Assembly: GCF_965363235.1 (NCBI RefSeq) | Contig: NC_134841.1 | Location: 74,781,723 to 74,845,722, forward strand | Reading direction: 5' to 3' | Length of the DNA stretch: 64,000 bases | DNA from: Mytilus galloprovincialis | Lineage: Eukaryota | Shown here: positions 40,831 through 46,918 of the stretch, piece by piece | How the letters are laid out: the number at the start of each line of letters is the position of its first letter | Numbering within the stretch: position 1 is the stretch's first letter | Notes under the pieces: model-generated | What the model saw: the letters and a program-made list of their open reading frames with translations, nothing else | Told to the model about the DNA's origin: nothing | Database searches by the model: none | Position numbers and translations under genes: made by a program

Positions 40831-41438
40831 TGTTATGATATTGTAATTATTGTATTTATTTATGTTTGCCTGATTTGTATTGTGTGGCCTGATAGTTGTT
40901 TACAGAATAATTTTAGAATTGTGCAGTTTAGAAATCTCTGGAACAATTACAGAATGATTGGAACTTTCCAGAATGATTCTAATAAAAGATGCATTATATA
41001 AACTTCTACATTTAACTAGAAACTTCTGTTGTAACTTTCTAGGATGTTCCATTATAGACTGTTCTAGAATCTTCCATGACAAATATATATATATACAGAC
41101 ACTAAAGTTAAACTCACTCTTGGACTTACTCTTGGACTTACACTCTTGGACTTAGACTAAGACATCGATAGACATTAATATTCATAGCATTTGGATTGAC
41201 ACTTTTATTCTACAAACAACATCATACTGGATTGTGACCGTAATATTCAGATTGGATTCCGAAAGATATCTGGATACAGATAAAGATAAAAGATTGGACT
41301 CATATTTTGACAGTTAAGTTGACAGTAATATTTGTTTAATACTTCTTGTAAACATTTGTATAATAAATATTGTTAAATTTTCTTATTGATTTGTGTCTTT
41401 TGTTGGCTACAATTTAAAGGCGATTTCTGGCCGTAACA
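40831..41438 (+). repeat. 5' LTR (608 bp, TG..CA, contains TATAAA ~40998 and AATAAA ~40980)
   Basis: Aligns with 46307-46918. Differences include an (AT)n length change, A/T at ~41000, AGACTA/AGACTTAG and a few SNPs. Confidence 0.9.
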
Positions 41439-41443
41439 GAAAT

Positions 41444-41461
41444 TGGGGGCTCGTCCGGGAT
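41444..41461 (+). other. Primer-binding site complementary to the 3' end of tRNA-Pro (TGGGGGCTCGTCCGGGAT)
   Basis: 18 nt, exact reverse complement of ..ATCCCGGACGAGCCCCCA, the vertebrate tRNA-Pro 3' end as recalled from established knowledge. Lies 5 nt after the LTR. Confidence 0.7.
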
Positions 41462-41538
41462 ACTGAAAATATCTTATTCAAAATTTGTTTAGTAATTTTT
41501 ATTATAACTAGCCAACAAAATTCTACAAAATCTACAAA

Positions 41539-42093
41539 ATGGCATTTGATGCCGGTAAATTTTTGAAAACGCCAGACCTGGAGGGGTTTGATAATTTAAA
41601 GAAAGAGGAATTAGTGTTGCTTGCTAAACATCTGAAATTGAGTTTTAAGGTATCTATGAGAAAACAAATTATAAAAAATTTGGTAATAGACAAATTAGTT
41701 GAAGCAGAAATTTTAGGTGAAGAGGCTCTTGAACTTAAGGTCGAAAATGTTGACGCCTTTAAATTAAAACAGCTTGAATTAGAACATGATCTTAAGTTAA
41801 AAGAACTAGAAATGAAGGAGATGGAGAAAATAAAAATAAAAGAACTTGAAATGAAGGAAAGGTTGGAAATGGAGAAAATAAAAGAAAAAGAAGATGAATT
41901 TAAATTAAAACAAGATGAATTTAAGTTAAAACAGACAGAACTTGAAATGAGGGAAAGACTAGAGATGGAGAAACTAAAACTTGAAATGGTCAAAGAAGAA
42001 AGCAACACTAAAGTCCAGTCGAAATCAGAATATTTTGATGCAGCAAAAAATATACGTTTGGTTCCCAAATTTTGTGAAAAAAACAGTCGATAA
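41539..42093 (+). CDS. gag N-terminal part: K/E-rich coiled-coil region; frame changes in an A7 run near 42076-42084
   Basis: MAFDAGKFLKTPDLEGFDNLKKEEL.. then repetitive LKELEMKEMEKIKIKELEMKERLEMEK.. The antisense S-rich ORF 41532-42146 is its low-complexity mirror. The gag-like sequence continues in the next frame (FPNFVKKTVDKYFPQFEKIA..). Confidence 0.6.
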   Translation: MAFDAGKFLKTPDLEGFDNLKKEELVLLAKHLKLSFKVSMRKQIIKNLVIDKLVEAEILGEEALELKVENVDAFKLKQLELEHDLKLKELEMKEMEKIKIKELEMKERLEMEKIKEKEDEFKLKQDEFKLKQTELEMRERLEMEKLKLEMVKEESNTKVQSKSEYFDAAKNIRLVPKFCEKNSR

Positions 42094-44889: not shown

Positions 44890-44905
44890 AAATCTTTTTC
44901 CAGAT

Positions 44906-46216
44906 GTGCCAAACAAAACCACTGCTGTTTGTCATGATGTTGATGTAGGAGATTCTTCTCCAATTAAGCAACATCCTTACCGGCTTAATCCACTCACACT
45001 TGAAGCTATGAGAAAAGAAATTAAATATATGCTTGACAATGATATTATTGAGCCGAGTAACAGTGAATGGAGCTCTCCTTGTCTCCTTGTGCCAAAACCA
45101 GATAAAACCTTTCGTTTCGTGACTGATTTCAGAAAAGTAAATTCAGTCTCAAAATCTGATTCCTATCCGATTCCAAGGATAGACGATTGTATTGACAACA
45201 TTGGTCAAGCAAAATTTGTGAGCAAATTTGAATTGTTGAAAGGCTATTGGCAAGTTCCATTGACACAGAGAGCTCGTGAAATATCAGCTTTTGTTACACC
45301 AGATGGTTTATTTCAATACACTGTAATGCCGTTTGGCATGCAAAGTGCACCAGCTACATTTCAAAGAATGATCAATAATGTTATAAAAGATTTAAACTGT
45401 TGTTATGCTTATATTGATGATCTAATTGTATGTAGTGATAGCTGGGAACAGCATTTAACGCATTTGTATGATACTTTTGATAGATTGTCACAATCAAATT
45501 TGACTGTTAATCTTGGTAAAACTGAATTTTGTCAGGCCACTGTTGATTATTTAGGGCATACAGTTGGCCAAGGTCAAGTGAAACCTATTATGGCTAAAGT
45601 GGAAGCTATTTCCAAATTTCCTCCTCCTACAAATAGGAAACAACTTATGAGATATTTAGGCATGATTGGATTTTACAGAAATTTTTTTTCAAATTTTGCT
45701 ACTGTGGTTCAACCACTGACTCATCTTTTACGAAAAGATTCTAAATTTATCTGGAGTGAAAATTGTCAAAACGCTTTTGAAAATAGCAAATCACTTTTAA
45801 TTAATAGTCCAGTTCTGATTACTCCAGACTTTGAAAAACAATTTAAACTTGCCGTTGATGCAAGCGATGTAGGAATTGGAGCTGTTTTATATCAAGAGAC
45901 AGATGATAATGTTGAGAAACCTATATCATATTTTCCCAAGAAATTAGATAAACATCAGAAAAATTATTCAACTATTGAAAAAGAGTGTTTTGCAATGTTG
46001 TCAGCACTTCAACATTTTGATGTATATTTGAATCCCACTGTATATCCTATTCTTGTTTGTACTGATCATAATCCTCTCACCTTCATACATAAAATGAGAA
46101 ACAAGAATCAGAGGTTGACTAGGTGGAGTTTATTGTTACAGGAATATGATGTAATTGTAAAACATATTAAGGGTAAAGATAATGTAATAGCAGATGCTTT
46201 ATCTAGAGCTTATTAA
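44906..46216 (+). CDS. Reverse transcriptase + RNase H (gypsy-type), located downstream of integrase
   Basis: LLVPKPDKTFRFVTDFRKVN; FQYTVMPFGMQSAPATFQRMIN; YAYIDDLIVCS (YxDD). RNase H: LAVDASDVGIGAVLYQ .. TIEKECFAML .. TDHNPLTF. Confidence 0.85.
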   Translation: MPNKTTAVCHDVDVGDSSPIKQHPYRLNPLTLEAMRKEIKYMLDNDIIEPSNSEWSSPCLLVPKPDKTFRFVTDFRKVNSVSKSDSYPIPRIDDCIDNIGQAKFVSKFELLKGYWQVPLTQRAREISAFVTPDGLFQYTVMPFGMQSAPATFQRMINNVIKDLNCCYAYIDDLIVCSDSWEQHLTHLYDTFDRLSQSNLTVNLGKTEFCQATVDYLGHTVGQGQVKPIMAKVEAISKFPPPTNRKQLMRYLGMIGFYRNFFSNFATVVQPLTHLLRKDSKFIWSENCQNAFENSKSLLINSPVLITPDFEKQFKLAVDASDVGIGAVLYQETDDNVEKPISYFPKKLDKHQKNYSTIEKECFAMLSALQHFDVYLNPTVYPILVCTDHNPLTFIHKMRNKNQRLTRWSLLLQEYDVIVKHIKGKDNVIADALSRAY

Positions 46217-46295
46217 AACACTTTGTACATGTATATACTATGTATTTTTGTTCATGTTATTCATGATAAGTTTTTGTTACACTAAAACTTCTTTT

Positions 46296-46306
46296 AAGGG
46301 GGGAGG
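46296..46306 (+). other. Polypurine tract AAGGGGGGAGG immediately 5' of the 3' LTR
   Basis: Seen directly; abuts TGTT at 46307. Confidence 0.75.
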
Positions 46307-46918
46307 TGTTATGATATTGTAATTATTGTATTTATTTATGTTTGCCTGATTTGTATTGTGTGGCCTGATAGTTGTTTACAGAATAATTTTAGAATTGTGC
46401 AGTTTAGAAATCTCTGGAACAATTACAGAATGATTGGAACTTTCCAGAATGATTCTAATAAAAGATGCATTATATAAACTTCTACATTTTACTAGAAACT
46501 TCTGTTGTAACTTTCTAGGATGTTCCATTATAGACTGTTCTAGAATCTTCCATGACAAATATATATATATATATACAGACACTAAAGTTAAACTCACTCT
46601 TGGACTTACTCTTGGACTTACACTCTTGGACTTAGACTTAGACATCGATAGACATTAATATTCATAGCATTTGGATTGACACTTTCATTCTACAAACAAC
46701 ATCATACTGGATTGTGACCGTAATATTCAGATTGGATTCCGAAAGATATCTGGATACAGATAAAGATAAACGATTGGACTCATATTTTGACAGTTAAGTT
46801 GACAGTAATATTTGTGTAATACTTCTTGTAAACATTTGTATAATAAATATTGTTAAATTTTTTTATTGATTTGTGTCTTTTGTTGGCTACAATTTAAAGG
46901 CGATTTCTGGCCGTAACA
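46307..46918 (+). repeat. 3' LTR (612 bp)
   Basis: Aligns with the 5' LTR at ~99% identity. Shared spurious ORFs (e.g. MSWKILEQSIMEHPRKLQQKF.. at 40900-41082(-) and 46376-46645(-)) confirm the duplication. Confidence 0.9.

Follow-up and report, generated by a model that had tools for sequence, protein, structure and literature searches.

A young, probably inactivated Gmr1-like Ty3/gypsy retrotransposon in the genome of Mytilus galloprovincialis

Gmr1-like elements form a clade of the Ty3/gypsy long terminal repeat (LTR) retrotransposons (Metaviridae). Gmr1 itself comes from Gadus morhua (Goodwin and Poulter, 2002, as cited in PMC6238403 and PMC8220671), and the clade, which has been recorded in fish, tunicates, echinoderms, crustaceans and annelids, is described as ‘present in several phyla’ (PMC8556966). 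Its protostome members include the crustacean elements GyRex4, GyLiva4 and others (PMC3587641) and the annelid element LGF3 (PMC8220671). The SCAN domain is derived from Gmr1-like capsid/gag (PMC8321522; bioRxiv 10.1101/2025.03.03.638093), and the order SCAN, protease (PR), integrase (IN), reverse transcriptase (RT) and RNase H, written SCAN-PR-IN-RT/RH, serves as a Gmr1-like signature (bioRxiv 10.1101/2025.03.03.638093). The literature that we searched yielded no description of the clade in Mytilus or other bivalves. Here we describe an element in 64,000 nucleotides of Mytilus galloprovincialis DNA (NCBI RefSeq assembly GCF_965363235.1, contig NC_134841.1, positions 74,781,723 to 74,845,722, forward strand), a stretch referred to below as the window and numbered from its first letter, with a G+C content of 32%. 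Direct reading and self-comparison show that positions 40831-46918 hold a complete LTR retrotransposon. It is very probably one full-length Gmr1-like Ty3/gypsy copy, which inserted recently, has since decayed neutrally and is now dead, having acquired five inactivating mutations, each missing from all the other copies compared that cover its site.

All features of the element lie on the + strand. Its 5′ LTR of 608 nt (40831..41438) and 3′ LTR of 612 nt (46307..46918) are direct repeats of each other, both running from TG to CA, and they are flanked by identical 5′ and 3′ copies of a TTAT target-site duplication (40827..40830 and 46919..46922, by direct reading). The LTR pair is 99.0% identical, the differences being six substitutions and, within a TA microsatellite, a single 4-bp indel, and homopolymer lengths are the same in both LTRs over the 608 nt compared. 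Motif reading suggests a putative TATA box, TATATAAA, at 40995-41002 and a putative poly(A) signal, AATAAA, at 41362-41367, both in the 5′ LTR. The primer-binding site (PBS), TGGGGGCTCGTCCGGGAT (41444..41461), lies 5 nt past the 5′ LTR and is the exact reverse complement of the 3′ 18 nt (CCA included) of human tRNA-Pro-TGG, the 3′ end of which was taken from a printed reverse primer whose start the PBS matches (PMC12217144). The PBS of murine leukaemia virus is identical (PMC4587795). ARAGORN, used to look for tRNA-Pro as a check on the PBS, found no tRNA genes in the window or in the four Mytilus loci described below. A polypurine tract, AAGGGGGGAGG (46296..46306), adjoins the 3′ LTR, so that TG..CA LTRs, target-site duplication, PBS and polypurine tract are all present. 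Neither blastn nor tblastn found second copies or solo LTRs elsewhere in the 64-kb window.

The comparison copies are four Mytilus loci, L002 from Mytilus coruscus and L003, L004 and L005 from M. galloprovincialis, plus the contig L001, which was used only for the last of the five lesions. The three M. galloprovincialis loci are 92-94% identical to the element overall, L003 and L005 over the full 6.1 kb, with L004 truncated and covering element positions 1-4179; the internal region of L005 is 97.9% identical to that of the window element. The RT piece has relatives at 98% identity on L001 and 92% in L002, and with the gag-PR query M. galloprovincialis and M. trossulus gave numerous protein matches at 64-98% identity. 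The copies nearest to the element belong to M. galloprovincialis and M. coruscus. Of the 18 nt of the PBS, 17-18 are conserved in each of the four Mytilus copies spanning it, and the polypurine tract is conserved in L001, L002, L003 and L005. The other Mytilus copies are older than that in the window, with LTR identities of 96.2-96.5%, and are broken at different places.

Pfam matches and motifs give the coding order gag (SCAN-like capsid, CCHC)-PR-IN-RT-RNase H, with gypsy-type domains throughout; the Pfam families occur in the order SCAN, Integrase_H2C2, rve, Integrase_p58_C, RVT_1 and RT_RNaseH. The N-terminal part of gag (41539..42082) is a frame-0 open reading frame (ORF), K/E-rich and coiled-coil-like, which runs up to the first lesion and is colinear with the N-termini of full-length homologues. 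Within its K/E-rich region are three copies of a 53-nt direct repeat at 72-100% identity (41792-41979) and a 21-bp tandem repeat (41886-41933), which suggests repeat expansion inside the coiled-coil-like segment. The next stretch (42084..43303) encodes the SCAN-like capsid domain (about 42275-42547; PF02023, E = 4.4e-11, 42.9 bits against a cutoff of 27), a CCHC knuckle (42704-42745) and the aspartic protease motif DTGA (42956-42967). Integrase follows at 43570..44871 (Integrase_H2C2, E = 2.3e-21; rve, 2.6e-12; Integrase_p58_C, 3e-10), with an HHCC zinc finger (43642-43764), a D,D35E core (43849-44151) and a C-terminal SH3/GPY-F region containing LKPYF (44650-44664). RT and RNase H (44873..46216; RVT_1, E = 3.4e-34; RT_RNaseH, 1.2e-34) include the motif YIDD (45410-45421) and end in TAA at 46214-46216. 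The closest solved structure to this last piece is that of Ty3 RT/RNase H (4ol8, E = 1.4e-90).

The element is placed within Ty3/gypsy by its RT core and domain families. A neighbour-joining tree (224 columns, 500 bootstraps) was built from the window RT, eight homologues that likewise encode IN first, and 32 references transcribed from the RT-core alignment of the Gypsy Database (GyDB; PMC8220671 supplement 4). The window sequence and the eight homologues form a clade of their own in 500 of 500 replicates, and this clade joins Gmr1 and rGmr1 in 454 of 500; Osvaldo, Woot and Ulysses make up the neighbouring group. Pairwise, the 224-aa RT core of the window is 47.3% identical to Gmr1 (235 bits) and 47.8% to rGmr1, its best references, 42.5% to Ty3 and 39.5% to Osvaldo. 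At E <= 0.01 Pfam returned no copia-type or other RT or integrase model, only gypsy/retroviral-type families. Membership of Ty1/copia was considered and rejected, given the RVT_1, RT_RNaseH and Integrase_H2C2 matches and an RT nearest to Gmr1 and Ty3. The PF02023 match makes the capsid's C-terminal domain homologous to vertebrate SCAN, and it adds support to the Gmr1 placement because the literature derives SCAN from Gmr1-like gag. On these sequence comparisons the element is a member of the Gmr1-like clade. An earlier reading of the DNA made from its letters alone (the sequence-only reading) had proposed this identity, together with LTRs about 99% identical, a TTAT duplication, an 18-nt tRNA-Pro PBS, a polypurine tract and the order gag(CCHC)-PR(DTGA)-IN(HHCC+DDE)-RT(YIDD)-RNaseH; the tree, with Osvaldo outside, and the features given above agree with it throughout.

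The position of IN upstream of RT (PR-IN-RT-RNase H) is shared by relatives inside and outside Mytilus. A frame-repaired window polyprotein of 1556 aa, used as a protein query, has more than 1200 homologues. The best 120 measure 1338-2140 aa and belong to pearl oyster, scallop, sea cucumbers, sea urchins and a sponge, besides many assemblies that carry no label. A single colinear alignment runs from IN to the end of RNase H in 112 of these 120 best full-length homologues. Among the nearest 120 relatives of the RT piece, all terminate no more than 34 aa from the RNase H end, 91 have an upstream IN and none has IN downstream of RT. In Mytilus, the order is colinear across the full 6.1 kb of L003 and L005, in the retained part of L004 and in the internal region of L002. 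Because the order is colinear in homologues and none of the nearest RT relatives has a downstream IN, IN-before-RT is, as far as these alignments reach, the architecture of the family itself. The same comparisons indicate that an intact member of the family is one uninterrupted gag-pol ORF, with neither stop nor frameshift between gag and pol.

The window copy departs from this pattern. ORF analysis divides its internal region into five reading pieces, and DNA and protein alignments locate five lesions, one stop and four frame-shifting indels. The first is an extra A in an A7 run inside gag (42077..42083), a +1 frame change. L003, L004 and L005 keep the frame here with A6; across the site, FCEKTVDKYF is the reading of at least 11 Mytilus protein clusters, and 25 distant homologues align over it without a gap. 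In M. coruscus the run is A8 (L002 6472-6540), which puts L002 and the window out of frame in opposite directions, and the run appears to be a recurrent slippage hotspot. The second lesion, past PR, is an extra A in an A5 run (43300..43304), again a +1 change: the window has AGAAAAA at 43299-43305 against AGAAAA in L003-L005, L002 has a different 1-nt deletion, and eleven Mytilus proteins are in frame, reading AMARKQQ.

The third lesion (43561..43567) is a 7-nt filler, AAGCAGA, in place of 66 nt, a net loss of 59 nt. The filler is a copy of the adjacent 43549-43555, and the 66 nt are intact in L002, L003, L004 and L005. It removes ...ECYY.QDGILMRKWRPPDA.P, a conserved 22-residue motif upstream of the IN zinc finger that is found in 25 of 25 aligned homologues. 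Many M. galloprovincialis gene models cease to match just upstream, after ‘KDPE’, and suggested that other copies share the deletion; this was ruled out, as the DNA of L003-L005 retains the 66 nt and the truncation of the models stems from gene prediction. The fourth lesion is an in-frame TGA for GGA inside IN (44305..44307), a G>T transversion at a Gly that is invariant in 25 homologues (RGPL motif), with GGA in L002-L005. The fifth is a 2-nt deletion (TT) at the IN/RT boundary, with its junction after 44873 (44873..44874): the window has AAAAAC--TGG against AAAAACTTTGG in L001-L005 (CTTTGG), homologues have one residue more here, and L001 aligns across the site in one reading frame. An extra A in the A5 run at 44868-44872 was tried as an alternative for this lesion and rejected, since five copies show the loss of TT after 44873.

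Comparison across the aligned copies thus indicates that every lesion is private to the window copy, that is, absent from each other copy covering the site. The sequence-only reading had placed a TGA at 44305-44307 and a frame change at the A7 run (~42076-42084), and both stand. It was right that the frame is broken between PR and IN, where it saw a single change and there are two lesions (the A-run at 43300-43304 and the net 59-nt deletion at 43561-43567), and right that there is a frame change between IN and RT, which it put at ~44890-44905, some 20-30 nt from the 2-nt deletion at 44873/44874.

Several observations concern the related sequences themselves. L001 (ENA ERZ27294030 contig k119_1107314, 1-3025) is 97-98% identical to the window element, begins exactly one base past the window TGA and has an in-frame TAA of its own at 121-123. 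Its 3′ LTR runs directly into a PBS and gag, so that it represents either a pair of elements with an LTR in common or a repeat that collapsed during assembly. In the M. galloprovincialis assembly GCA_900618805.1, dozens of gene models annotated as ‘SCAN box’ or ‘Peptidase A2 domain-containing’ proteins (P0241-P0269) are fragments of this retrotransposon family. Several of them exit the element after KDPE and continue in unrelated sequence, and P0258, with a Pfam PF00474 match, looks like a chimeric gene model.

The number of lesions can be set against the age of the insertion. With an LTR divergence of K = 0.0099 and a coding span of 4678 nt, about 23 substitutions (95% interval 8-50) are expected in the coding span since insertion. 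Since 5.3% of random substitutions in the coding sequence make stops, 1.2 stops are expected and one is observed; one LTR indel per 1216 lineage-bases predicts 3.8 coding indels, and four are observed. The lesion number is the neutral expectation for 1.0% LTR divergence, and the match of stop and indel counts to the LTR-based prediction therefore points to neutral decay. The description of the lesions as ‘few’ for an element diverged by about 1%, given in the sequence-only reading, is wrong. The substitutions private to the window, scored against the comparison copies covering each site, number 48, about twice the 23 expected after insertion, and 22 of the 48 are synonymous as against 20% at random. 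Roughly half of them are probably older changes fixed under selection, and the other half neutral changes since insertion. At an unmeasured rate of 1-5e-9 per site per year, the insertion would be about 1-5 million years old.

Taken together, this suggests the following history, the steps of which are drawn from general knowledge of LTR retrotransposons. Transcription of an active member of the family would start from its 5′ LTR, and translation would yield one gag-PR-IN-RT-RNase H polyprotein. Both tRNA-Pro, at the PBS, and the polypurine tract would act as primers of reverse transcription, and integrase would insert the DNA copy, making a 4-bp duplication (here TTAT). The window copy would have arrived in this way recently and then decayed neutrally through five inactivating mutations. 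It does not have the uninterrupted gag-pol ORF of an autonomous element, being broken by one stop and four frame changes and lacking the 22-residue motif, and on its reading frames it should no longer be able to make integrase or RT and is to be regarded as dead.

A number of points weigh against this account. The tree is a neighbour-joining tree on 224 columns with references transcribed by hand, and the PBS match was made to human tRNA-Pro. The indel expectation rests on one LTR indel. The comparison set consists of four loci and one short contig, none of them from the window's own assembly, and a lesion could have been inherited and be shared with sister copies outside this set. Finally, the first two lesions are single-base changes in A7 and A5 homopolymers and could be assembly errors.

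The rival that fares best, although we consider it unlikely, is that the copy was dead on arrival, with one or more lesions coming from its source copy or from the reverse transcription of that copy, and that intact relatives mobilised it in trans, in place of decay once it was inserted. Reverse transcriptases are prone to slippage at homopolymer runs and to template switching. The filler of the third lesion duplicates the adjacent AAGCAGA, as template switching would give, and the recurrent change of the gag A-run among copies (A6, A7, A8) fits RT slippage. The excess of private substitutions and their enrichment in synonymous changes also imply that part of them predate insertion, in a lineage under selection. 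On the other side, each of the five lesions is missing from every other copy covering its site, and decay after insertion fully accounts for their number. An origin of lesions in the replication cycle would in any case leave the verdict of a dead copy unchanged.

Slightly less probable again is that some or all of the interruptions are assembly or sequencing errors and that the real copy is intact or nearly so. A single-base change in homopolymer length is a typical class of long-read error, and the two A-run changes noted above are of this kind. The other three lesions, a templated filler, a G>T change and a loss of TT outside an A-run, are atypical for homopolymer error, and the LTR pair shows no difference in homopolymer length over its 608 nt. 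Because lesions 3-5 are not of the homopolymer type, the copy would be dead even if the first two were artefacts.

Programmed recoding, by readthrough of the TGA and by bypass of the frame changes through ribosomal frameshifting or transcriptional slippage, would leave the copy functional, and we regard it as extremely improbable. Termination at a TGA with C as the next base, as here, is leaky; A-runs hold two of the frame changes, and at both of these L002 from M. coruscus has likewise lost the frame (through A8 and a 1-nt deletion). However, each interruption is missing from other copies (A6, AGAAAA, the 66 nt, GGA and CTTTGG, respectively), at least 120 homologues have uninterrupted ORFs, and where L002 has lost the frame, three further copies and no fewer than 11 protein clusters keep it. 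The length changes differ, L002 requiring a -1 shift at the gag A-run and the window copy a +1 shift, with no common mechanism. The TGA stands at an invariant Gly, and the loss of the conserved 22-residue motif in lesion 3 is beyond repair by recoding. Folding of 120 nt from the TGA, without pseudoknots, gave no sign of a stimulatory structure (minimum free energy -11.8 kcal/mol, z = +1.18, with 183 of 200 shuffles folding as well or better); structure was sought at the TGA only. Recoding is rejected because every interruption is private to the window copy, which also means that no interruption is conserved among copies. Of the three explanations offered in the sequence-only reading, recent lesions thus hold, recoding falls away, and assembly error is possible only for the two single-A changes.

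Least credible of all, and with next to no probability, is that a conventional gypsy element was locally rearranged, or chimerically assembled, to give the IN-before-RT order, a condition named in the sequence-only reading as one that would overturn it: the rarity of an IN-first order among gypsy elements is the only point in its favour, and it is refuted by the same order in L003 and L005 (6.1 kb), in the internal region of L002 and in 112 of the 120 full-length homologues, whose hosts include bivalves, echinoderms and a sponge, as well as by the nearest RT relatives, none of which has a downstream IN.

For the favoured reading, of a recent insertion that has decayed neutrally, the wider meaning is modest. 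It documents a Gmr1-like family in a Mytilus genome and has little import beyond annotation. It also offers a worked example: in an LTR element diverged by 1%, about one stop and four indels are to be expected, and such interruptions are not to be taken as signals of recoding. That many Mytilus ‘SCAN box’ or ‘Peptidase A2 domain-containing’ gene models are transposon fragments is useful for genome curation. A broader proposal, which we hold to be unlikely, is that the Gmr1-like lineage is abundant and has been active in Mytilus within the last few million years and is very widespread in marine invertebrates. Pearl oysters, scallops, sea cucumbers, sea urchins and a sponge all have close relatives of full length, with RT cores 64-81% identical across phyla, and the sponge sequence nests among echinoderm sequences. 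Horizontal transfer between marine phyla, and not vertical descent alone, could explain this pattern. If this proposal were true, surveys of bivalves would have overlooked a major gypsy clade.

The window contains other repeats away from the retrotransposon. A unit of ~3.8 kb at 29378-33153 lies between long inverted repeats, the outer arms of which (29378-29432 and 33099-33153) are 55 nt long and 100% complementary, with inverted arrays of a 21-bp tandem repeat inside the arms (29411-29739 and 32853-33120). It encloses an integrase-core ORF at 30030-31130 (Pfam rva_4, E = 5.7e-73), which is preceded and overlapped by an ORF in another frame (29813-30187), and the whole resembles a young element of DNA-transposon type that carries a DDE integrase. 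There are also a perfect (TATC)67 microsatellite at 54884-55151, a perfect (AT)30 run at 33726-33786, and short tandem repeats of two to three copies each at 37125-37318 (period 95 bp) and 19878-19984 (period 39 bp).

Compared with known systems, the element is most like Gmr1 and rGmr1, with which it shares the pol order PR-IN-RT-RNase H, gypsy-type domains and the grouping of its RT core, and it has the SCAN-like C-terminal capsid domain of Gmr1-like elements. It differs from them in that the RT cores are only 47-48% identical, that its host is a bivalve and not a fish, and that, with its invertebrate relatives, it occupies a fully supported subclade of its own. A bivalve member fits the known protostome range of the clade, with GyRex4, GyLiva4 and LGF3 compared by description only. 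Osvaldo, Woot and Ulysses, gypsy elements of Drosophila, are neighbours that fall outside the clade holding the window element. Like Ty1/copia elements it encodes IN upstream of RT; unlike them, it has the Pfam domain families of gypsy and an RT closest to Ty3 and Gmr1. Ty3 of Saccharomyces cerevisiae (PDB 4ol8, 7q5b) resembles it in the types of its enzymatic domains and in the general life cycle based on LTRs, PBS and polypurine tract. The 1547-aa Gag-Pol of Ty3 has its RT-RNase H at residues 582-1009 and its IN downstream, whereas in the window element RT-RNase H is C-terminal and IN lies upstream. Ty3 expresses pol through a +1 frameshift; intact members of the window family, unlike Ty3, are single ORFs.

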